Source: Chloroflexota bacterium
Lineage (GTDB): Bacteria; Chloroflexota; Anaerolineae; Anaerolineales; E44-bin32
Length of the DNA: 64,000 nt
Reading direction: 5' to 3'
Assembly: GCA_022561385.1 (NCBI GenBank)
Contig: JADFRG010000010.1
Location: 13,135-77,134, forward strand
Translations under genes and position numbers: made by a program
The notes under the pieces: generated by a model
Told to the model about the DNA's origin: nothing
The model's database searches: none
The model's input: only the letters and a program-made list of their open reading frames with translations
Shown here: positions 23,195 to 33,057 of the stretch, piece after piece
How positions within the stretch are numbered: the stretch's first letter is position 1
Layout of the letters: each line of letters begins with the position of its first letter

Positions 23195-23410
23195 AAATAG
23201 TTGGGCGACTCGCACTCCCGGTCGCTACGGTGCGGATTAGATCGCTCGCTTCTTGTTTGGTGGACGACGCCTAAGGGGTGAATTAGGTCGCAAGCTAGGG
23301 CCGACCTCGCCTGTATAACTTGGGCCGGACGTCGCACAACCTCCGCCAGCCTGGGTCCGAGGGAATCCTCCCCAGCGTTAGAGGCGCGGCCTCCCAGATC
23401 TTATTCTGGG

Positions 23411-23788
23411 CTAGTCTTTGAACAGATCCGTCCGCAGAATGGCTGCTCCCTCCAGATAACGGTGGGCCACAGCGGATTGCGGCTGCTCAGTATCCCAGAG
23501 CACCCGCACCCGAATACATTGGTTCAAGGCCCCTTCGACGCGCATCTCCTGAACGCACATCAGGCCGGCCTCGGTCCACCCCAGGTCGCGGGCCACTTCC
23601 GCCGGATACGCCTGATCGAGATCCGGAGTTACAGAAAATGTGGCCGCGATGACCTCGCTTGGCTTCAGGCCGTTCGCCTCGGTCAGCGCATGCAAAAGAG
23701 CACGGGTGGCCTCAAGGATCGCTTCCTGGGAGTTTTCGGGAACCGTTATAGCGCCTCGAATCGCTCGGACCGGCATGCTACGCGGCAT
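23411..23788 (-). CDS. aroH: Chorismate mutase, AroH class (monofunctional)
   Basis: 125 aa. The VRAIRGAITV N-terminal motif and overall AroH-type pattern are present. The gene is divergent from the aro operon. Confidence 0.9.
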   Translation of the reverse strand: MPRSMPVRAIRGAITVPENSQEAILEATRALLHALTEANGLKPSEVIAATFSVTPDLDQAYPAEVARDLGWTEAGLMCVQEMRVEGALNQCIRVRVLWDTEQPQSAVAHRYLEGAAILRTDLFKD

Positions 23789-23805
23789 GGTACCACCAAT
23801 TCACC

Positions 23806-23835
23806 TTGACCGATTTTCCCAGGCTGTGCTATGAT
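23806..23835 (+). promoter_or_regulatory. Promoter candidate for the aro leader/operon (TTGACC-N18-TATGAT)
   Basis: Hexamers at 23806-23811 and 23830-23835. The leader ATG at 23843 begins 7 nt after the -10 hexamer, so the leader may be leaderless or nearly so. Confidence 0.5.
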
Positions 23836-23842
23836 CCCGCAG

Positions 23843-23923
23843 ATGATTCGAACATCCTGGCGAAGCTTTGGCTATTATTATTTTGGAGGGTTGAGCGCTC
23901 AGCCGCTGCTTCGGCTTGTATAG
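23843..23923 (+). CDS. Candidate aro-operon leader peptide, 26 aa: MIRTSWRSFGYYYFGGLSAQPLLRLV
   Basis: My own translation of 23843-23923 (ATG ... TAG). Codons 6-14 contain Trp, Phe, Tyr-Tyr-Tyr and Phe. The ORF lies between the promoter-like hexamers and the terminator hairpin, directly upstream of the DAHP synthase gene. Confidence 0.6.
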   Translation: MIRTSWRSFGYYYFGGLSAQPLLRLV

Positions 23924-23945
23924 GTAGGCATCATCCACTATCCAG

Positions 23946-23973
23946 GCACCGAGCAACGGCTCGGTGCTTTTTT
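23946..23973 (+). terminator. Intrinsic terminator/attenuator hairpin in the aroF 5' leader
   Basis: GCACCGAGC-aacg-GCTCGGTGC forms a perfect 9-bp stem (23946-23967) followed by TTTTTT (23968-23973). It ends 27 nt before ATG 24001, which has the SD GGAGGAGG. There is no upstream + strand gene for it to terminate. Confidence 0.8.
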
Positions 23974-24000
23974 GTTTTCTACTAACCGAAGGAGGAGGAA

Positions 24001-25047
24001 ATGATCATTATTATGAAACATGACGCAACACAAGCCCAGATCGATTATGTGGTGGCAAAGGTGGAAGGCCTTGGATACGAGGCGCATTTGAGCGCCGGGC
24101 AGGAACGCACGATCGTGGGTGTGATTGGCGACGACCGCCCGATCGATCCCGGCAATTTTCAACCGATTCAAGGCGTCGAGAACGTGCTCTCGATATTAAA
24201 ACCTTTCAAACTCGCCTCCCGCGAGATGCATCCCATGGATACGGTGGTGGATGTTGACGGGCTGCTCATCGGCGGAAACGAGCTGGTGATTATGGCCGGA
24301 CCCTGCTCGGTCGAAAACCGAGATCAGCTATTGGAGACCGCCCACGCAGTTAAGGAGAGCGGCGCAACCATTCTGCGGGGCGGTGCCTTCAAGCCACGTA
24401 GCTCACCGTATAGCTTTCAGGGTCTGGGGGAAGAGGGGCTGGAACTCCTGGCAGAGGCGCGGCACGAAACGGGCCTGAAAATTATTACCGAAGCCATGTC
24501 GCCCGAGCAAGTCCCAGTTGTTGCCAAGTACGCGGACATCATCCAACTTGGGGCTCGAAATATGCAGAACTATGAGCTGCTGCGGGCCGCGGGGCGGGCG
24601 GGACTCCCGGTGCTGCTCAAGCGAGGATTGATGGCGACCATCGAGGAATGGTTGATGTCGGCCGAATACTTGCTGTCGGTTGGAAATGAGCGGATCATAC
24701 TTTGCGAGCGGGGGATCCGATCCTTCGAGAGCTACACTAGAAATACCACCGACATCAACGCCATCCCGGTCGTGCAGGAGCTCTCACACCTGCCGGTGAT
24801 TCTGGACCCCAGCCACAGCACTGGAAAGTGGGAGTACGTAACGGCCGTAGCGCGAGCCGGAGTGGCTGCTGGAGCAGATGGTCTGATCATAGAAGTCCAT
24901 CCCAATCCGGAAGAGGCGCTTTCGGACGGTGCCCAGAGTCTGCGGCCGGAGCGCTTTGCGGAATTGGTTGGGCAGGTCCGGGAAGTTGCCCGGGCGGTTG
25001 GACGGGAGCTGATTGAGCCGGAATGGACCTCGAAGACGCCCGCCTAA
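24001..25047 (+). CDS. aroF: 3-deoxy-7-phosphoheptulonate (DAHP) synthase, type I-beta with an N-terminal ferredoxin-like/ACT-like regulatory domain
   Basis: 348 aa. The first ~70 aa ([31 protein letters not shown]...) resemble the Thermotoga-type regulatory domain. The catalytic barrel carries [15 protein letters not shown] and [19 protein letters not shown]. Confidence 0.95.
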
Positions 25048-25895
25048 CAATCGTCGGCCTTGGGCTGATGGGCGGCTCCATGGCGCTCGCTCTGCGGCCG
25101 CGCTGCCGGGAGCTGGTCGGGATCGATTCGAATCCAGAGACCTTGGAGCTCGCGCGCCGAGCCGGAATCACGACCCAAGAATCAGATCCCGCGCAGGCCC
25201 ACACCGATGTGCTGGTCCTGGCAACGCCGGTGAAGGAAACCTTGAGATTACTTGAGGCCTTCCGATCGGACCCACCCGCGGTCCATTTGTTGATGGATAT
25301 TGGATCTACCAAACGACAGATTGTAGATGCGATGGAAATGCTTCCAAGCCGGGTCGCGGCAGTGGGAGGCCACCCATTGTGCGGGAAGGAGCGGGCAGGT
25401 TTTGCAGAGGCCGAGGCGGAATTATTCTTTGGGAGTTTATTTGTGCTGACTCCATGCTCACGGACCACGCCCAGCTCGCTCGCGCTTGCGGAACAGATTG
25501 TGGGTGCGCTCGGGGCCTCGGTCCGGCAAATGGAGGCCGCCCGGCACGACCGGCTGGTGGCCACCGCGAGCCACCTTCCTTACCTCTTGGCCACCGCGCT
25601 GATGAGGTCTGCGGAGTCGGTCGGCGGGAAGGATCCTGAACTATGGGACCTGGTTTCCTCGGGTTTCCTCAGCACCTCCCGGCTGGGAGCCAGTGATCTC
25701 ACCATGATGGTCGACATACTCACCACAAACCAGGACAACGTGCAGGAGGCGTTGGCGCTCGCTCAATCCGAGCTGGAGCAACTGCGCGAGCTGTTGGTCG
25801 GCGGGGAAATCGGGCGGCTGCGCGATTATTTGGAGCCCTCGCAGCTCAGGCGCGCTTCGATGAAGAATCCAGGGGGTAGCACTCGTGGAGCTTAA
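25023..25895 (+). CDS. tyrA: Prephenate (or arogenate) dehydrogenase
   Basis: 290 aa with the [15 protein letters not shown] Rossmann motif and the GGHPLCG motif. It overlaps the aroF 3' end by 25 nt. Confidence 0.9.
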
Positions 25896-27177
25896 AGTCA
25901 CAGGAGCCGCCAAGAACCTGCGAGGAACGATTCGAGTTCCTGGCGACAAATCTATGACACACCGTGCATTGCTCTTAGGAGCAATGGCCGGCGGTGCCAG
26001 CCGTCTGCGGGGAATGATGCGGGCGGGCGTGATCGATGCTATGCGCGACTGCCTGGCGGCGCTCGGGGTTGAGATCGAGAAGATAGATGAAGAAGAGACG
26101 CTTGTGCATGGGAGGCATTGGTTATCTCCAGACCGAATATTAGATTGTCGCAATTCAGGCACAACGATGCGATTCCTGATGGGAGCCCTGGCCGGCTCGT
26201 CCGTCTCGGCCACCCTGACCGGATCTCCGCGGCTTTCGCAACGGCCGATGGATCGAGTGGCAGAACCGCTGCGAAGGATGGGGGCCCAAATCGCCGGACA
26301 CAATGGCAGCGACCAGCCGCCGCTGCAGATCGCGGGCTCCCGGCTGCGCGGGATCGAATACGACATGCCGGTCGCCTCCGCCCAGGTGAAAACCGCCATC
26401 TTGTTGGCCGGGTTACATGCCGAAGGCCGCACGCTTATACACGAACCGGTGGCCTCCCGCGACCACTCCGAACGGTTGCTTCGACACCTGGGCGTGTCGG
26501 TGACGAACTCTAACGGCACGCTCCACCTTGAGCCCATTCAGGCCCCGCTTCCAGCATTCGAGTTTGTTATTCCGGGCGACCTCTCCGCGGCGGCCTTCAT
26601 GGTGGCGGCCGCCTTGCTGACTCCAGGCTCGGAGATCAGGGTTCAAAATTTGGGTCTCAACCCCACTCGTACCGGCCTGCTGAACACCATGCGGCGCATG
26701 GGGGCGACTATCGAAACCAGCGCTATTACGGAAACGGCCGGTGAGCCGACCGGTGAGCTGACCGCCACGTTTTCGCCCCTGAAAGGGATCGAGATTCAAG
26801 GAGAGCAGGTGGTGTCGATGATCGACGAAATTCCCGCCCTGGCGGTTGTCGCCACGCAGGCGCATGGGGAGACAAAGATCCGTGGAGCAGGCGAATTGCG
26901 GCTGAAGGAATCGGATCGCCTGTCCGGAATGACGGCCGAGTTAAGGAAAATGGGGGCCCAGATCGAGGAGCACCCGGATGGGCTCACCATCGAAGGCCCG
27001 ACCCCGCTCACTGGAACGCGAGTGCATTCGCATGGGGATCATCGGCTCGCCATGGCCCTGACGGTAGCCGGATTATTGGCCTCCGGGGAGACGATCATCG
27101 CAGACGCTGAAGTCATTCACGAGTCTTACCCCGAATTCGTAACAACTCTACGTTCGATCGGAGCAGAGCTGGAGTGA
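25885..27177 (+). CDS. aroA: 3-phosphoshikimate 1-carboxyvinyltransferase (EPSP synthase)
   Basis: 430 aa with a GTG start. Motifs: LRGTIRVPGDKSMTHRALLLGAMA, LKESDRL, DHRLAMA. Confidence 0.95.
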   Translation: MELKVTGAAKNLRGTIRVPGDKSMTHRALLLGAMAGGASRLRGMMRAGVIDAMRDCLAALGVEIEKIDEEETLVHGRHWLSPDRILDCRNSGTTMRFLMGALAGSSVSATLTGSPRLSQRPMDRVAEPLRRMGAQIAGHNGSDQPPLQIAGSRLRGIEYDMPVASAQVKTAILLAGLHAEGRTLIHEPVASRDHSERLLRHLGVSVTNSNGTLHLEPIQAPLPAFEFVIPGDLSAAAFMVAAALLTPGSEIRVQNLGLNPTRTGLLNTMRRMGATIETSAITETAGEPTGELTATFSPLKGIEIQGEQVVSMIDEIPALAVVATQAHGETKIRGAGELRLKESDRLSGMTAELRKMGAQIEEHPDGLTIEGPTPLTGTRVHSHGDHRLAMALTVAGLLASGETIIADAEVIHESYPEFVTTLRSIGAELE

Positions 27178-28070
27178 AAAAAGTCGTGCTTTTAGGCGCT
27201 CCGGTGGCCCACTCCTTCTCACCCACCATTCAGAACGCGGCCTTCAAGGAGGCCGACCTGGACTGGCGCTACCAGGCCTTGGAGATCGCCCCCGGAAATC
27301 TTGGCGCGACCCTCGCGCGCATGCGCGAGGAGGGATGGCCGGGCGCCAACGTGACCATCCCGTTCAAGGAGGCAGTATCGCCGCTCCTGGATGAGATTGA
27401 CCCTTCGGCGGACCGGACGTCGGCCGTCAATACCATCGTCAACAACAACGGCCATCTGGTGGGTCACAACACGGACTTAAGGGGATTCATGACCGATCTG
27501 AAGGCCCATTGGCAAGTCCCGAGTGCCGGACCTTCTCTTATCCTTGGAGCCGGCGGAGCCGCGCGGGCGGTGGCTTTCGGGTTGGCGGGTGAGGGCCTCG
27601 ACCTGACCTTCATCGCCAGGTCAAGCGGCCGCGCCGAACGATTGGCCGAGGACGTGCGCCGAGGCGGCGCGGCGGACGTGGCAACACTCCCCTGGGCGCG
27701 CGAGTTTTTCGTAAATTCTTCGAGCCAGTGCATCCTGGTGGTCAACGCCACCCCGTTGGGCATGATGCCTAATATCCGAAAATCGCCCTGGCCGGACGAT
27801 TTGCCCCTTCCCCCGGATGCTTTTGTTTATGATCTGGTCTACTCTCCCCCGGAAACTCGGCTGGTGCAGCAGGCGCATCAATCGGGGATCGAGGCCGTGT
27901 CCGGGGCCGGCATGTTGCTGGAACAAGCCGCCTTATCGTTTGAGCTCTGGACCGGCCAAACCGCCCCGCGCGAACGGATGCGAGCCGCACTTGGAAAGGC
28001 GTTAGGGCGATCGAGCGCCTGGGGGAAATTGGCAGGCCAGCCTAACCGCCGCGAGGTGTTGGATGCTTAG
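27174..28070 (+). CDS. aroE: Shikimate dehydrogenase
   Basis: 298 aa. The GTG start overlaps the aroA stop (GTGA). Motifs: GAPVAHSFSPTIQNAAF, NVTIPFKE, NTD, GAGGAARA. Confidence 0.9.
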   Translation: MKKVVLLGAPVAHSFSPTIQNAAFKEADLDWRYQALEIAPGNLGATLARMREEGWPGANVTIPFKEAVSPLLDEIDPSADRTSAVNTIVNNNGHLVGHNTDLRGFMTDLKAHWQVPSAGPSLILGAGGAARAVAFGLAGEGLDLTFIARSSGRAERLAEDVRRGGAADVATLPWAREFFVNSSSQCILVVNATPLGMMPNIRKSPWPDDLPLPPDAFVYDLVYSPPETRLVQQAHQSGIEAVSGAGMLLEQAALSFELWTGQTAPRERMRAALGKALGRSSAWGKLAGQPNRREVLDA

Positions 28071-29232
28071 ATTTCTGACCGCCGGAGAATCGCACGGGCC
28101 TGAACTGCTCGCGATCGTGGAGGGTATTCCTGCCGGCCTGGCGCTCACGGAAGCCGACCTGCTTCCCGACCTCGCCCGCCGCCAGGTGGGATTCGGGGTC
28201 GGGCCAAGAATGAAGTCCATCGAGCAGGACGAAGCTCAGATCGTATCGGGTGTGTTGGCCGGGCTCACCATCGGAGCTCCTATCGGCCTACGGATCATCA
28301 ATCGCGATCACACGAAGTGGAAGGGCCAGGAGATTCCGCCGATGACGGTCCCGCGTCCCGGCCATGCGGATCAAACGGCCGCGCTAAAATATGGCTACCC
28401 GGATTTACGCTTCAGCCTGGAGCGTGCCTCTGCGCGTGAGACGGCTGCGCGGGTGGCGGTAGGTGCCGTCTGCCGCAAGCTGCTCGCCGAGTTCGGCATA
28501 TCCATCGGGAGTTACGTCACGGAAATAGGCACCGCCTCCGCCGAATTTGGGGAACTGGATTTTAATCAGCGCTTCGAAGCGGCCGAGCGAAGCGAAGTAC
28601 GCTGCCCAACCGAGGCCGGTACGGCGGCCATGCGTGAAGAGATTCGGGCTGCCATGCAGGCTAAAGATACGTTGGGCGGCGTGTTTGAGGTGGTCGCCTT
28701 AAACGCCCCGCCGGGATTGGGCAGCCATGTGCATTGGGATCGGCGGCTTGGGGGGCGCGTGGCGGCGGCCATGATGAGCATCCATGCCATGAAAGGGGTT
28801 GAGATTGGCCCGGGCTTCGAAAACGCTCGAATGCGCGGCACGCAGGTCCACGATGAGTTCGAAACCTCGGACGAGCGAGTCCGCCGCCGGAGCAACCGTG
28901 CCGGCGGTCTCGAAGGAGGAATCACAACCGGCGACCCGCTCATCGTCCGGGTTGCGATGAAACCCATCTCGACCACACTGACCCCACGCGCCTCGGTGGA
29001 TCTGGCCACCGGTCAGGCGGCCGAAACCCGTTACGAGCGCTCAGATTTCTGCTCGGTCCCCCGCGCGGCCGTTGTGGGAGAGGCCATGCTTTGTATTGTG
29101 CTGGCAGAGGCGCTGCTTCGTAAACTCGGCGGCGATTCGGTTTCGGAGATGAAGCCCAGGTTCGACCAGCTGCCGCGGGGTCGCCTGGACGATTTTAAAA
29201 TGGTCAATGAGCCCATCATCTTCTGGGACTAG
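28063..29232 (+). CDS. aroC: Chorismate synthase
   Basis: 389 aa with the MLRFLTAGESHGP N-terminus and the RPGHAD and SARETA motifs. Confidence 0.95.
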   Translation: MLRFLTAGESHGPELLAIVEGIPAGLALTEADLLPDLARRQVGFGVGPRMKSIEQDEAQIVSGVLAGLTIGAPIGLRIINRDHTKWKGQEIPPMTVPRPGHADQTAALKYGYPDLRFSLERASARETAARVAVGAVCRKLLAEFGISIGSYVTEIGTASAEFGELDFNQRFEAAERSEVRCPTEAGTAAMREEIRAAMQAKDTLGGVFEVVALNAPPGLGSHVHWDRRLGGRVAAAMMSIHAMKGVEIGPGFENARMRGTQVHDEFETSDERVRRRSNRAGGLEGGITTGDPLIVRVAMKPISTTLTPRASVDLATGQAAETRYERSDFCSVPRAAVVGEAMLCIVLAEALLRKLGGDSVSEMKPRFDQLPRGRLDDFKMVNEPIIFWD

Positions 29233-30826
29233 CCGCGTGTCGGAAAACCTTCTTCGGATGCAACCCCTGAACATAGTGCTTGCAGGGCCTCCCGGCGCAG
29301 GCAAATCTGCCGTCGGGCGGCTGCTGGGAGAGCGCCTGAATCGCGAATTCGTGGACACCGATACGCTTGTGGAGCGGATGGCCGGAAAACCAATACACCA
29401 AATGTTTGAAGAGCAAGGTGAACCCGCGTTCCGGCAGATGGAGATCGAGGCCTGCCGACAGGTGGCAGAGCCGGCCGACCGCGTGATCGCTTGCGGAGGA
29501 GGCGCCTTGATGGACGCCGGCAGCCGGATCCTGATGGAGGCCGGCGGCACCCTCGTTTGTCTTACGGGTGAACCGGAGGTGCTCCTGGCCAGGCTGGGAA
29601 AGGACGGGTCTCGTCCACTCCTGGCAGGCGCGAGTCCGAGCGAGCGCCTGCAAGACTTGTTGGAGGCGCGCAAGGACACCTACGATTCGATACCGGCTCA
29701 GGTCGACACCACCAGCCTCTCGGTCGAGCAGGTTGCGGACCGGCTCGTAGAGCTCCCATTGGCGAAGCGGACGGTTCGAATGACGGCTAGCCGTCCGCGC
29801 CCGGGCTACGAGGTTTTGCTGGGGGAGCAATTGATCTCCAATCTGTCAGCGTTGCTGGAGCAGGCAGAGCTCTCGCCGCCCTACGTAGTCGTTTCAGACT
29901 CGAACGTCGCCCCACTGTACGAGGAAATCACACGCGCATCACTGGAATGTTCTTTTATCACGGTGCCCGCGGGGGAAAACCACAAGTCCCAGGAGACGTT
30001 ATATCAACTGTACACAACCTTCCTGGATTCCGGCGTGGATCGCAGCAGCACGGTGGTTGCCCTGGGCGGTGGAGTGGTGCTTGATCTGGCCGGCTTCGCG
30101 GCCGCGACCTACATGCGCGGAATTCGGTGGGCCGCCTTGCCTACGACCCTGCTGGCGGTTGTGGACGCCAGCCTTGGGGGTAAGGTCGGAATCAATCTCG
30201 CCGAGGGCAAGAACCTGATCGGCGCCTTCCATCCGCCCGGGGTCGTGCTGGCCGACCTGTCGACGTTAGCCACCCTACCCGAGGTTGAAGCGCGGACCGG
30301 GCTGGCCGAAATGATCAAGGCCGCGTTGATTGGCGACGCGGACCTTTTCACATCCATGGAATCGGGACCCACCTGGATCGGCCGCAGCTGGATCCATCGG
30401 GCAATACAGCTCAAGCTGACCATCGTGGACGAGGATCCGCAGGAGAGTGGACGGCGGGAGGCGCTCAACCTGGGTCATACGTTTGCCCACGCGCTGGAGG
30501 CCGCCAGCCGCTACCGTCTGCCTCACGGTCAGGCCGTCGCCATTGGATTGTTGGGCGCCACTCGGCTTGCTGGTGCCCTGGACCGCTGCGAGTCGACTCT
30601 GGAGGACCGCGTTCAGGAAGTGCTGCTTCGTTTTGGCCTACCGGTCCGCTTTTCCGGACTGGACACCGACCGCATACTCGATGCCATGAAACAGGACAAA
30701 AAGCGCAAGCAGGGGCGATCCCGGTTCGTAATTCCGATCCGTCCCGGTCGGGTCGAAAGCGGAATTGAGGCCCCTGAGGCGCTGATCCGTGACGTCGTGG
30801 ATGGATTGAGGGAAGGAACTCCATGA
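29207..30826 (+). CDS. Bifunctional shikimate kinase / 3-dehydroquinate synthase (AroK-AroB fusion)
   Basis: The N-terminal ~170 aa carry Walker A GPPGAGKS and FRQMEIEA (shikimate kinase). The C-terminal ~360 aa carry GGGVVLDLAGFAAATYMRGI and PTTLLAVVDASLGGKVGIN (DHQ synthase). The start is uncertain: ATG 29207, GTG 29237 or ATG 29258. Confidence 0.9.
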   Translation: MSPSSSGTSRVSENLLRMQPLNIVLAGPPGAGKSAVGRLLGERLNREFVDTDTLVERMAGKPIHQMFEEQGEPAFRQMEIEACRQVAEPADRVIACGGGALMDAGSRILMEAGGTLVCLTGEPEVLLARLGKDGSRPLLAGASPSERLQDLLEARKDTYDSIPAQVDTTSLSVEQVADRLVELPLAKRTVRMTASRPRPGYEVLLGEQLISNLSALLEQAELSPPYVVVSDSNVAPLYEEITRASLECSFITVPAGENHKSQETLYQLYTTFLDSGVDRSSTVVALGGGVVLDLAGFAAATYMRGIRWAALPTTLLAVVDASLGGKVGINLAEGKNLIGAFHPPGVVLADLSTLATLPEVEARTGLAEMIKAALIGDADLFTSMESGPTWIGRSWIHRAIQLKLTIVDEDPQESGRREALNLGHTFAHALEAASRYRLPHGQAVAIGLLGATRLAGALDRCESTLEDRVQEVLLRFGLPVRFSGLDTDRILDAMKQDKKRKQGRSRFVIPIRPGRVESGIEAPEALIRDVVDGLREGTP

Positions 30827-31290
30827 AACAAGTCCTGGTTCTACACGGTCCAAATCTGAACCTGCTGGGCGAGCGTGAGCCGGATCTTTACGGAACGCTT
30901 ACCCTTGCGCAGATCAACGATCGCGTCCAATCGGAAGCCGAACGGCTGGGAGTGAAAATCACGGTCGTCCAATCCAATCACGAAGGTGTGTTGATCGATG
31001 AGTTACATGCGGCCCGCGAGTGGGCCATCGGCGGAATCATCAATCCGGGCGGACTGTCACACACATCGGTTTCGCTTCGGGACGCCATCGCAGCCGTCGA
31101 ATATCCCGTGATCGAAGTCCACTTGTCCAACATCTACGCGCGCGAGCATTTCAGGCGGCGCTCGCTCACCGCGGCCGCGTGCTCTGGGGTCATATCGGGT
31201 CTGGGCTGGCAGGGTTACCTGATGGGTCTCCAGGCTATCGTTTCACAGAATGAAGAGGCTGCGACCGAGGATGGGAGCGAGACCGCCTAA
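30823..31290 (+). CDS. aroQ: 3-dehydroquinate dehydratase, type II
   Basis: 155 aa. Motifs: VLVLHGPNLNLLGEREPDLYG, NPGGLSHTSVSLRDA. The ATGA overlaps the upstream stop. Confidence 0.95.
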   Translation: MKQVLVLHGPNLNLLGEREPDLYGTLTLAQINDRVQSEAERLGVKITVVQSNHEGVLIDELHAAREWAIGGIINPGGLSHTSVSLRDAIAAVEYPVIEVHLSNIYAREHFRRRSLTAAACSGVISGLGWQGYLMGLQAIVSQNEEAATEDGSETA

Positions 31291-31401: not shown

Positions 31402-31431
31402 TTGACAAACCTTCAATTCTTCTGATACTCT
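31402..31431 (+). promoter_or_regulatory. Promoter candidate upstream of lysC (TTGACA, then GATACT/TACTCT about 16-18 nt downstream)
   Basis: TTGACA lies at 31402-31407. The -10-like region cTGaTACTCT lies at 31422-31431. Confidence 0.4.
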
Positions 31432-31463
31432 CATCGAAATATCCAGAAGGTAGCAGACCGATA

Positions 31464-31553
31464 ATGATTTACGGACGCGATCGAGCGACGAGTACCGGCA
31501 CCGGATTGACTATGGGCATGACATTCAGCTCCCGGCAGATGGAGGGCGCTTAG
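31464..31553 (+). CDS. Candidate lysC-asd leader peptide, 29 aa: MIYGRDRATSTGTGLTMGMTFSSRQMEGA
   Basis: This is the 3' part of ORF-track entry 31341-31553, taken from the ATG downstream of the promoter-like hexamers. It has 5 Thr and 4 Met codons (aspartate-family products) and no Lys. SD support is weak (GAAGG 13 nt upstream). Confidence 0.35.
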   Translation: MIYGRDRATSTGTGLTMGMTFSSRQMEGA

Positions 31554-31586
31554 CCTAGTTAGACGGATAGATTTCAGAAAATAGGC

Positions 31587-31620
31587 AGGCCGCTCTCAAC
31601 CCGGGAGCGGCCTATTTTAT
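31587..31620 (+). terminator. Hairpin plus A/U-rich tract just upstream of lysC (attenuator, or the aro-operon terminator)
   Basis: AGGCCGCTC (31587-31595) pairs with GAGCGGCCT (31605-31613), a 9-bp stem with a 9-nt loop, followed by ATTTTATT. It ends about 16 nt before ATG 31636. Confidence 0.6.
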
Positions 31621-31635
31621 TGCTGCGAGCAGCCA

Positions 31636-33057
31636 ATGACCCTTGATGAAACGCGATTGAAAACCCTCACCATGAAATTCGGCGGGACTTCCTTAGGAAC
31701 CGCCGAGGCCATCATGCAATCCGCCGAAATTGCGAAGGCCGCCCGAGATCACACCGCGGACCGGATAGCCGTGGTCGCCTCGGCCATTCATGGGGTCACC
31801 GATGGGCTGCACGAGGCGACCAGTGCCGCCGCCGGAGGAGACGAGCGATATCTGCAGGTCATCGCGGAACTGAGGGATGTCCACCGTCGGTGCGCCGAGG
31901 CGCTGTTGGAGCAGGAGTCCAGAAATGCGGTGGCGGAAATCGACCAGCTCCTGGAGGGCTTCTCGGGGTTCTGCGAGAGCGTGCGGACGTTGGGCGAGGC
32001 CGGGCCGCGCGCGCTGGACCATGCGATGAGCCTGGGCGAGAAGATGAGCGTCATCCTTTTGGCGGCCTCCATGCGGCAGCTCGGAGTTGCGGCGATCGCG
32101 GTAGACGCCTCGGAGGTCATCGTTACCGACGATCGATTCCAGGACGCCGCGCCCGACTTGGAAGCCACGCGGCAAAAGGCAACTGCAACCCTGATACCCG
32201 TTCTCGAACGCGGCGAGACGCCGGTGATCACCGGTTTCATCGGAGCCACACGCGAGGGCGTAACAACGACCCTGGGGCGCGGCGGGTCTGATTTCAGCGC
32301 AGGCTTGATCGCGGCATGCCTGGACAGCGATGAACTGTGGATATGGACCGACGTGGATGGCGTAATGACCGCCGATCCGAAGGTTGTGGACTCGGCCCGG
32401 ACGATTGCGACACTGGGCTACGAGGAGGTTCGGGAACTATCTTATTTCGGTGCCAAGGTGCTGCACCCGAAAACCATACAATCCGTATTCGAGACCGAAA
32501 TTCCGATACGTGTGAAAAATACGTTTGACCCATCCCACCCCGGGACCTTGATCGTTCCCAATCCGGAGGAAAGCAACGGTGCAATCAAGGCCGTTACCGC
32601 GGTGCGAAATGTGAGTCTCATCACGGTCGAGGGCAAAGGCATGATGGGCGTCCCAGGAATCGCGGCTCGAACATTCGAGGCCGTGGCCAGCACCGGAGCC
32701 AGCGTTCTGCTCATCTCGCAGGCCTCGTCGGAGCAAAGCATCACCTTTGCCGTTCCCAGGACAAACGCCTCCACCGCGGTCGAAGCTCTGGAGTCGGAAT
32801 TTGAGCGGGTGCTCAGCCGAGGGAATATCGACCGAATATGGGCTCAAGATGACATCACAATTGTCACTGTTGTCGGGAGTCGCATGCGGGAAACCGCCGG
32901 AGTGGCCGGTCGGGTCTTCACCGCCACAGGACTGCGGGGCATCAATGTGGTCGCCATCGCGCAAGGGTCGTCCGAGTGCAGCATCTCGCTGGTGGTTCGG
33001 GATCGTGATGGCGACGATGCGGTACGCGCCATCCACGAACTGGTTATTGAAGGATGA
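31636..33057 (+). CDS. lysC: Aspartate kinase (monofunctional, two C-terminal ACT domains)
   Basis: 473 aa with the KFGGTSLG motif, the amino-acid kinase fold pattern and two ACT-like repeats (VSLITVEGKGMMGVPGIAAR..., ITIVTVVGSRMRETAGVAGR...). The start could also be ATG 31672. Confidence 0.9.
   Translation: MTLDETRLKTLTMKFGGTSLGTAEAIMQSAEIAKAARDHTADRIAVVASAIHGVTDGLHEATSAAAGGDERYLQVIAELRDVHRRCAEALLEQESRNAVAEIDQLLEGFSGFCESVRTLGEAGPRALDHAMSLGEKMSVILLAASMRQLGVAAIAVDASEVIVTDDRFQDAAPDLEATRQKATATLIPVLERGETPVITGFIGATREGVTTTLGRGGSDFSAGLIAACLDSDELWIWTDVDGVMTADPKVVDSARTIATLGYEEVRELSYFGAKVLHPKTIQSVFETEIPIRVKNTFDPSHPGTLIVPNPEESNGAIKAVTAVRNVSLITVEGKGMMGVPGIAARTFEAVASTGASVLLISQASSEQSITFAVPRTNASTAVEALESEFERVLSRGNIDRIWAQDDITIVTVVGSRMRETAGVAGRVFTATGLRGINVVAIAQGSSECSISLVVRDRDGDDAVRAIHELVIEG

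Follow-up and report, generated by a model that had tools for sequence, protein, structure and literature searches.

The window analyzed here, a 64,000-nucleotide stretch of a contig from an Anaerolineae bacterium of the phylum Chloroflexota, carries an aromatic/tyrA operon whose genes overlap or abut (Table 1). The original prediction gave the first enzyme an N-terminal allosteric domain, and by Pfam the DAHP synthase (DAHPS) consists of a ferredoxin-like (FL) N-terminal domain and a type I-beta synthase. A minus-strand promoter for the divergent aroH was sought inside the leader region, and none convincing was found. At 31464-31613 of the same window a Thr/Met-rich ORF and a terminator lie before an aspartate kinase gene and make up a second candidate leader.

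Upstream of the DAHP synthase gene the sequence, read directly, holds a promoter, a 26-codon ORF, a hairpin followed by T6, and a Shine-Dalgarno (SD) motif with its ATG, each exactly where the original prediction had placed it. The promoter comprises TTGACC (23806-23811), an 18-nt spacer and TATGAT (23830-23835); TG at 23827-28 makes this an extended -10, and with the TG the site scores 10/12 in a promoter scan. Aromatic codons account for six of nine consecutive codons in the leader ORF. The perfect hairpin core, GCACCGAGC-AACG-GCTCGGTGC plus T6, occupies 23946-23973, and its stem extends to 11 bp at 23944-23969. None of the four assemblies examined, all of the same organism, has the leader ORF among its called genes.

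Table 1. Positions of the leader elements and neighboring genes in the window
Feature	Position	Strand	Remarks
aroH-type chorismate mutase	23411-23788		divergent from operon
-35 hexamer TTGACC	23806-23811	+	TTGAC(N) kept at equivalent place in most family members
extended -10 TGcTATGAT	23827-23835	+	ends 7 nt 5' of leader ATG 23843
leader ORF MIRTSWRSFGYYYFGGLSAQPLLRLV	23843-23923	+	26 codons + TAG (23921-23923); read directly; homologues/analogues in relatives
regulatory codon cluster	23858-23884	+	W6 23858-60, F9 23867-69, Y11-Y13 23873-81, F14 23882-84
segment 1, 5' strand of anti-antiterminator	23843-23874	+	ATGAT, CGAAGC, TGGCT; in minimum free energy (MFE) fold of free leader
segment 2, from ORF 3' end to 12 nt past stop codon	23900-23935	+	AGCC, GCTTCG, ATCAT; partner of segment 1 or, via 23907-23923, segment 3
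segment 3, terminator 5' arm and loop with adjoining flank	23938-23958	+	CTAT, CAGGC, C, GAGCA pair with 23907-23923; masked folds
intrinsic terminator	23944-23978	+	11-bp stem 23944-23954/23959-23969, loop AACG, U-tract TTTTTTGTTTT
SD AGGAGGAGG (23990-23998) and DAHP synthase ATG 24001	23990-24003	+	read directly
controlled operon, 7 genes	24001-31290	+	Pfam: DAHP synthase, tyrA, aroA, aroE, aroC, aroK-aroB fusion, aroQ

In the window the -10 box ends 7 nt short of the leader ATG, and among the 46 leaders with a promoter score of at least 8 the gap is 7-12 nt in 35, no SD-like motif being present. This spacing suggests that the leader mRNA may be leaderless, with a predicted start at or beside A23843. 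Of the remaining leaders, several carry a further in-frame ATG on the 5' side, at 8-10 nt. In the window an in-frame ATG at 23831 falls within the -10 box, and its use as a start is unlikely.

The arrangement recurs in relatives. An F/Y-rich ORF of 20-30 codons, with a terminator 22-36 nt 3' of its stop, heads the aro operon at about 70 of 160 related loci, drawn from Anaerolineae-type genomes and metagenomes and including essentially every Anaerolineae-labelled genome locus with the operon head in range. The element always sits at the head of the operon, whichever gene comes first there: DAHPS, aroH or a second DAHPS. Together these loci encode 54 distinct leader peptides with means of 3.4 Phe, 3.6 Tyr and 0.4 Trp, and Phe or Tyr makes up ~30% of leader-ORF codons. 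Leader ORFs homologous to that of the window occur at loci L001, L002, L081, L082 and L084, and analogous ones at ~70 loci; a metagenome-assembled genome labelled A. thermophila (locus L030), for instance, has the leader MCSSRVAYWFYFYSGISPRTAGGSA and a terminator. The peptide sequences diverge among loci while the architecture of ORF plus terminator persists, and no motif beyond a variable F/Y run is common to the 54 peptides. Close relatives show synonymous TAT/TAC and TTT/TTC swaps, whereas hardly any nucleotide differs in the 3' half of the ORF, which takes part in the RNA pairing. A comparison of relatives' upstream regions had been suggested along with the original prediction; it found the short F/Y-rich ORF kept and the stem changes compensatory, the family terminator being 94.5% paired with 72 compensatory cells.

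Folding likewise revealed the mutually exclusive structures that had been anticipated: the MFE structure of the free leader contains the 1:2 pairing, and masked folds set a 2:3 pairing against the terminator. The short 1:2 hairpin initially drawn, AGCCG (23901-05) with CGGCT (23912-16), is absent from the predicted folds and receives no support from the comparison; CGGCT belongs to segment 2. The predicted 2:3 antiterminator is larger than the 7 bp first proposed, joining 23907-23923 to 23938-23955. In masked folds it excludes the terminator, and the family version pairs with the terminator loop too.

Comparison across the family supports both alternative pairings. The 1:2 duplex of the window (23843-23874 with 23900-23935), whose 5' strand extends from the start codon across the aromatic codons, has an energy of -22.2 kcal/mol, and family-wide the cognate duplexes of segments 1 and 2 reach -22.0 kcal/mol, against -15.4 kcal/mol for non-cognate ones (z = -9.3). 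Measured against shuffled sequences, the antiterminator of the window is no more stable (z = -0.42), and the per-locus mean is z = -0.85; this weak per-locus shuffle test was replaced by a test of cognate against non-cognate duplexes with controls. In the replacement test, segment 2 pairs preferentially with its cognate terminator 5' arm plus loop across the family (z = -4.75, 0 of 20,000 permutations), with all four controls null, and the window's own cognate combination ranks only 5 of 23. The apical helix of the antiterminator is 77.7% paired in alignment A1, with 17 compensatory cells; slid versions are 26-51% paired. In the MAFFT alignment, indels and repeated TTY/TAY codons limited a column-wise helix search to short fragments of both the 1:2 and the 2:3 helix, and the 1:2 helix was therefore left unscored by columns. 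Since the aromatic codons also supply one strand of the 1:2 helix, their conservation at the nucleotide level could be partly structural.

The behavior of the leader as a switch was followed in silico in a folding scan over ribosome positions. In the window, the probability of the terminator is 0.89 with no ribosome present, drops to 0.16-0.27 with a ribosome at codons 4-10, reaches a minimum of 0.00-0.02 with the A-site on Y11-F14, and is at least 0.96 with the ribosome anywhere between codon 15 and the stop codon. Varying the ribosome leading edge over 10-16 nt preserves the dip at the Tyr codons and moves its end by one codon. A pattern like that of the window, never displaced, appears in 19 of 45 relatives. 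In 26 of the 45 family members the terminator is still thermodynamically dominant despite a stalled ribosome, and because of that dominance antitermination in these members would need kinetic trapping.

Since the architecture is kept at ~70 loci, both alternative pairings co-vary, and the position scan loses the terminator only with the A-site on the aromatic codons, we consider it very probable that the element is a ribosome-mediated (leader-peptide) transcription attenuator of the seven-gene operon, tuned by charged tRNA-Phe and tRNA-Tyr; in this respect the comparative and folding data favor what the original prediction had proposed for the aromatic-rich ORF. That prediction had all three aromatic amino acids sensed. 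The Phe and Tyr codons are indeed conserved, but Trp occurs in just 21 of the 54 leaders and W6 is unconserved even among the six closest relatives. Because the Trp codon is unconserved, the element reads as essentially a sensor of Phe plus Tyr, not of Trp.

Building on the observed sequence elements, their conservation, the co-variation of the pairings and the switch in silico, we infer that the leader ORF is translated and responds to amino-acid supply, and we envisage the following mechanism. Transcription would begin about 7 nt past the -10 box, placing the RNA 5' end at or beside the AUG of the leader ORF. With ample Phe and Tyr, the ribosome should reach the UAG and, judging from its footprint, mask segment 2 (23900-23935); the 11-bp terminator hairpin (23944-23969) would then fold, and RNA polymerase would halt at the U-tract, short of the DAHP synthase gene. 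A shortage of Phe-tRNA or Tyr-tRNA would stall the ribosome on segment 1 at codons 9-14 (F-G-Y-Y-Y-F) and leave segment 2 exposed, so that its 23907-23923 portion could capture the terminator 5' arm (23938-23955) and the polymerase could read through. With no ribosome on the leader, segments 1 and 2 would presumably pair, and termination would be the default.

Other explanations deserve consideration. The terminator might be regulatory while the sensor is a TRAP- or PyrR-like protein, a small molecule or a tRNA (as in a riboswitch or T-box), the ORF being incidental. Aromatic operons of related lineages are commonly under T-boxes or proteins, and the 3' half of the RNA is conserved in nucleotides; both points speak for such a sensor. 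We nonetheless regard this reading as very unlikely. Searches found no T-box (RF00230) or riboswitch match in the leader at E up to 10, or in the window and 40 relatives at the gathering score; more broadly, no Rfam leader family (Trp, His, Leu, Thr etc.) matched 23300-24500 at E up to 10, and no relevant Rfam match appeared in the whole window or the 40 related loci at the gathering score. The leader is only ~130 nt long, and no (G/U)AG repeat array is visible in its sequence. Moreover, the conserved trait is an open frame of F/Y codons whose distance from the terminator is fixed, something that a ligand- or protein-binding RNA would not need. We give slightly less credence still to the idea of a stand-alone short transcript, either a small RNA or the gene of a small hydrophobic protein, with the operon served by its own promoter and control unrelated. 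In Sinorhizobium, trans-acting RNAs and peptides can derive from attenuators (PMC6614838, PMC7298713), which lends this idea some plausibility; however, only 27 nt separate the U-tract from the DAHP synthase ATG, the promoter scan found no promoter-like site between them, the element stays with the start of the aro operon irrespective of which gene leads it, and the pairing with the terminator co-varies.

The nascent chain is rich in aromatic residues, which would also suit an arrest peptide. In that mechanism, known from tnaC, free aromatic amino acids would be sensed in the ribosome tunnel and stalling would occur when they are abundant. For a biosynthetic operon the sign is wrong, since the end product would induce its own synthesis; the 54 different peptides share no motif past the variable F/Y run, and the geometry matches stalling at the aromatic codons rather than at the stop codon. 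Its likelihood is accordingly lower again. Least credible is a chance co-occurrence of a functionless ORF and terminator. The MFE of the whole leader is unremarkable (z = -0.68), as chance would predict, but of the 1172 small ORFs that the 64-kb window contains, only two have at least six aromatic residues in any ten, and perfect hairpin-plus-T-run terminators number only five on both strands combined. The rarity of both makes a chance origin very unlikely, and since the combination is kept with co-variation at ~70 loci, the comparative data effectively refute it.

Attenuation by a leader peptide thus remains our preferred reading, and it invites comparison with known systems. A C. glutamicum aroR-aroF attenuator was reportedly described by Neshat et al. 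in 2014 (J Biotechnol 190:55). Judging from the literature, this system would be the closest analogue, the resemblance being functional: in both cases a short mixed Phe/Tyr leader peptide lies immediately 5' of a DAHP synthase gene. The aroR peptide (Phe-Tyr-Phe) lies upstream of aroF, whose expression rises on ribosome stalling at its Phe and Tyr codons (PMC11802643, PMC7356990); one account has the control as translational (PMC7356990), and only Phe limitation is reported to be effective (PMC11802643). The two differ in that C. glutamicum belongs to the Actinomycetota, aroR has three aromatic codons where the Anaerolineae family has ~7 and the window six, and the window element would control the whole common pathway plus tyrA. 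With E. coli pheL-pheA and trpL-trpEDCBA the element shares the 1:2/2:3/3:4 logic (Yanofsky 1981; PMC3082878), a regulatory codon run in or near segment 1, a stop codon that lets the terminating ribosome cover segment 2, and an intrinsic terminator. The E. coli leaders, in contrast, are SD-led, sense a single amino acid and control a terminal branch, and the DAHP synthase genes there are under TyrR/TrpR instead; the window leader has no detectable sequence or structure similarity to them (no Rfam match), and the Anaerolineae antiterminator pairs with the terminator loop as well. Short regulatory ORFs that lack an SD and open the transcript, as predicted for the window leader from its 7-nt distance to the -10 box, are represented by the leaderless leader peptides in the accessible part of a Deinococcus deserti study (PMC4007540), which makes no mention of an aromatic or DAHPS case, and by the mycobacterial polycysteine leaderless short ORFs (bioRxiv 10.1101/834739). 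Transcription starts were mapped experimentally in both, whereas that of the window leader is predicted. T-box leaders, which in Firmicutes and some Chloroflexi precede aromatic amino-acid genes (PMC3766115), sense tRNA charging to permit terminator read-through, the role proposed for the window leader; they do so by binding uncharged tRNA directly through an RNA of 200-300 nt, and the window leader is too short and has no T-box signature.

The mechanism is classical textbook material, and the phylum setting is what appears new. We found no description of such an element in Chloroflexota (Chloroflexi) in the literature, which we covered incompletely, and an earlier description is possible. Anaerolineae are abundant in sludge and sediments and mostly uncultured, and to our knowledge almost none of their gene regulation has been described experimentally. 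The present analysis puts forward a specific mechanism, open to test, by which this group could regulate its aromatic amino-acid synthesis, and would extend leader-peptide attenuation, its leaderless form included, to Chloroflexota. The mixed Phe/Tyr codon run, together with the ferredoxin-like allosteric domain carried by the DAHP synthase, would make for two-tier feedback at pathway entry. The ~70 loci, with their 54 distinct peptides and co-varying alternative helices, form a well-populated attenuator family missing from Rfam. We see an even chance that this is a large and old family of Anaerolineae, and probably of other lineages too, that is leaderless, senses Phe plus Tyr and is independent of the proteobacterial and actinobacterial leaders, with a single mixed-codon sensor governing all of the shikimate pathway and an antiterminator that invades the terminator loop. 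If true, this would run counter to the view of such attenuators as essentially gamma-proteobacterial (PMC3766115) and, taken with the aspartate-kinase candidate, would suggest leader-peptide attenuation, rather than the T-boxes or proteins of other groups, as a main means of amino-acid control in the phylum.

Two minor observations concern the related loci. A recurrent 'SLEY/SLEH' translation 5' of DAHPS in many relatives was taken for a conserved RNA and proved to be aroH read out of frame (RVLIHWNT); in these loci aroH lies between the leader and DAHPS. Similar pairs of ORF and terminator occur at a Dehalococcoidia-labelled locus (L041), at an unclassified one (L044) and on several unclassified metagenome contigs.

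The leader between the divergent aroH and the DAHP synthase (DAHPS) gene is best supported as a classical ribosome-mediated attenuator that would sense the supply of Phe- and Tyr-tRNA. The architecture of a family of related leaders, their co-varying pairings and a scan of ribosome positions uphold the original prediction of such an attenuator, with three details corrected, and every element it had named was found in its place when the sequence was read directly. A ribosome held on the aromatic codons would permit the antiterminator (the 2:3 helix), a ribosome at the stop codon would leave the terminator to form, and the absence of a ribosome would give the anti-antiterminator (the 1:2 helix) together with the terminator; trpL and pheL follow the same switch logic. 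The combination of leader ORF and terminator is rare, since only 2 of the 1172 small ORFs in the 64-kb window have at least six aromatic residues in any ten and the window holds only five perfect hairpins with a T-run, counting both strands.

Features of the two leaders and their neighbouring genes (window coordinates)
Feature	Position	Strand	Basis or remark
-35 TTGACC	23806-11	+	read in sequence; 18-nt spacer to -10
-10 TATGAT, extended by preceding TG	23830-35	+	promoter scan score 10/12
Leader ORF, 26 codons, MIRTSWRSFGYYYFGGLSAQPLLRLV	ATG 23843 to TAG 23921-23	+	read in sequence
Terminator, perfect hairpin + T-run, tail TTTTTTGTTTT	23944-23969	+	terminator scan, 11 bp
AGGAGGAGG, then DAHPS ATG	24001	+	read in sequence
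1:2 helix	23843-23874 with 23900-23935	+	ATGAT:ATCAT, CGAAGC:GCTTCG, TGGCT:AGCCG; -22.2 kcal/mol
2:3 helix	23907-23923 with 23938-23955	+	TGCTT:GAGCA, G:C, GCTTG:CAGGC, ATAG:CTAT; masked folds
AroH-type chorismate mutase	23411-23788	- (divergent)	Pfam
DAHPS with N-terminal ferredoxin-like domain, tyrA, aroA, aroE, aroC, aroK-aroB fusion, aroQ	24001 to 31290	+	Pfam; these genes abut or overlap
Candidate aspartate kinase attenuator	31404-31636	+
29-codon ORF, MIYGRDRATSTGTGLTMGMTFSSRQMEGA	31464-31553	+	Thr 9, 11, 13, 16, 20; Met 17, 19, 26
11-bp terminator	31587-31613	+	22 nt before aspartate kinase gene
Aspartate kinase, AA_kinase + ACT	31636-33057	+

Folding with the ribosome-covered portion masked gave mutually exclusive structures, antiterminator or terminator, according to where the ribosome was placed. 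When the ribosome covers the aromatic codons, the terminator 5′ arm pairs with a stretch made up of the final codons, the stop codon and a few nucleotides beyond; when it stands at the stop codon, that arm has no partner and the terminator forms; and in the unmasked fold the aromatic-codon region pairs with the 3′ end of the ORF, again leaving the terminator intact. The 1:2 helix supported here differs from the one originally proposed, and the antiterminator is larger than had been drawn. Because energy alone does not set the antiterminator apart from shuffled sequences (z = -0.42 in the window, family mean -0.85), we turned to co-evolution, comparing cognate and non-cognate duplexes among 23 non-redundant leaders with double centring. 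Cognate duplexes of the ORF 3′ end with the 5′ arm plus loop were the stronger (z = -4.75, 0 of 20,000 permutations), and remained so when the arm was cut down to its final 5 nt plus the loop (z = -3.64), and four controls (each segment reversed, the ORF 5′ end, and post-terminator sequence) were null. For the 1:2 helix, cognate pairs gave -22.0 kcal/mol against -15.4 for non-cognate ones (z = -9.3). A MAFFT alignment of 45 leaders shows 94.5% pairing in the terminator and 72 compensatory cells there. In the apical antiterminator helix the ORF motif GCCGTTGCTT meets the end of the arm, the loop CAAC(G) and the start of the 3′ arm. Pairing in this helix is 77.7%, compared with 26-51% when it is slid, and its 17 compensatory cells were equalled in 3 of 500 shuffles; two related loci (L005 and L105), for example, have GCCG for GTTG in the leader and CGGC for CAAC in the loop.

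For each A-site codon we also calculated how probable the terminator stem is at equilibrium, placing the leading edge of the ribosome 13 nt past the A-site. In the window this probability is 0.89 with no ribosome, 0.97-0.99 at codons 1-2, 0.53 at codon 3, 0.16-0.27 at codons 4-10, 0.00-0.02 at Y11-F14 and 0.96-1.00 from G15 to the stop. An edge of 10 or 16 nt keeps the dip on the Tyr codons and shifts its end by one codon (at 16 nt the value for F14 is back at 0.96). The dip is present in all six members of the window's subfamily and, as a fall below 0.5, in 19 of the 45 leaders, where it is confined to the aromatic run. For the remaining 26 leaders the terminator still dominates at equilibrium, so that antitermination, on this model, would require the antiterminator to fold before the terminator as the RNA is being made.

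Relatives were drawn from 80 genome and 80 metagenome loci, in which as much as 2-2.4 kb of sequence ahead of DAHPS was scanned. In about 70 of the 160 the operon begins with a 20-30 codon ORF rich in F/Y and a strong terminator after it. The leader lies directly before DAHPS (the window, L001, L002, L012, L016, L025, L038, L081, L082, L084), before aroH-DAHPS (about 560-690 nt upstream), or 1.4-1.8 kb upstream, ahead of a longer operon head that often opens with a second DAHPS copy. Where an Anaerolineae-labelled locus has no leader, either its upstream sequence is cut short or its operon head lies beyond the scan range; the same scan found no leader in Omnitrophota, Nitrospirota and similar-group loci. 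The 54 distinct peptides average 3.4 Phe, 3.6 Tyr and 0.39 Trp per ~25 residues, with 27-42 nt from the last aromatic codon to the stop codon and 22-36 nt from there to the terminator stem. The comparison bore out a conserved short F/Y-rich ORF and compensatory stem changes, and the expected Trp codon was not kept: the window's W6 is not conserved within its own subfamily and any Trp occurs in only 21 of the 54 leaders, which reduces a proposed sensor of all three end products to Phe and Tyr. Within the window's leader and those of L001, L002, L081, L082 and L084, aromatic codons swap synonymously (TAT/TAC, TTT/TTC) and nucleotides in the 3′ half of the ORF hardly vary, a pattern that fits selection on codon identity in the run and on RNA pairing in the 3′ half. 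GTAG follows the stop codon in 26 of the 54 leaders (equivalent to 23924-23927 in the window); it pairs with CTAC/TTAT in the Phe-Tyr codon run, as part of the 1:2 helix, and also yields a second stop in the +1 frame.

An aromatic-rich short ORF and terminator also precede more distant DAHPS genes (55-62% identity; L136, L137, L142/L149, L154, L159/L160, L041, L044), with peptides such as ...GWRRYFYYFPHV..., ...RRRWYFGFYYFWFTY... and NFYFNFYYFYF. One of these loci is labelled Dehalococcoidia and one an unclassified "bacterium" MAG, the others being unclassified metagenome contigs, a hint that the strategy extends past Anaerolineae.

The leader ORF is predicted to be leaderless or nearly so. 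Its ATG lies 7 nt from the end of the -10 hexamer, of the 46 leaders whose promoter match is good, 35 have a distance of 7-12 nt and several others an upstream in-frame ATG at 8-10 nt, and no SD-like motif was found at the leader ORFs of the family; together these support such a start. Leaderless leader peptides are known in Deinococcus deserti (PMC4007540) and mycobacteria (bioRxiv 10.1101/834739).

The closest relatives of the window's DAHPS are from Chloroflexota/Anaerolineales MAGs (L001, 90% identity; L002, 87%). An exact copy of the protein is present in 94 public assembly blocks, GCA_022626345.1 among them, on contigs reaching 50-200 kb, which marks the organism as widely sampled. The four assemblies read (L161-L164, the same organism) share an identical 212-nt leader region, and in none of them did a gene caller annotate the leader ORF.

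Since the mechanism is textbook, the leader is a further case of a known attenuator type; the value of the family lies in its size and coherence, the phylum in which it occurs and its clean predicted switch. The nearest functional analogue is the C. glutamicum aroR leader (Phe-Tyr-Phe) before aroF (PMC11802643, PMC7356990). The leader matched no Rfam family even at E up to 10, and so belongs to no curated leader family; the whole window gave no match at gathering score. Rfam matches unrelated to the leader, in the flanks of related loci, were a SAM riboswitch, a cobalamin riboswitch and a tmRNA gene (L007 2080-2208, L041 1216-1392 and L029 1869-2269, all minus strand). A cis-regulatory RNA survey includes only four amino-acid attenuator motifs, which it suggests may be of gamma-proteobacterial origin, and in the passages considered here mentions none of the four for its five Chloroflexi genomes (PMC3766115). 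Our literature search, incomplete in coverage, found no earlier description of this element.

The ferredoxin-like domain of the first enzyme is PF18152. In Thermotoga-type DAHP synthases this domain confers allosteric inhibition by aromatic amino acids, and by analogy control of pathway entry would be two-tiered, attenuator and enzyme, in line with the original suggestion. In most relatives aroH lies between leader and DAHPS on the same strand (L004-L034, L085-L124); the window's subfamily has it inverted, as a divergent gene, which takes it out of the attenuated operon, and no convincing minus-strand promoter for it was found in 23789-23960. Nine relatives (L005, L008, L010, L011, L015, L111, L113, L116, L118) have two DAHPS genes in one operon, the leader ahead of the first, and in some a pheA-like gene (C-terminus ...LGSYP) lies between or before these two.

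What looks like a second leader-peptide attenuator precedes aspartate kinase. In masked folds its antiterminator supplants the terminator only with the A-site on T11-M17. This leader is not leaderless, having a promoter-like TTGACA...GATACT about 35 nt upstream, and its terminator is one of just three on the plus strand of the window.
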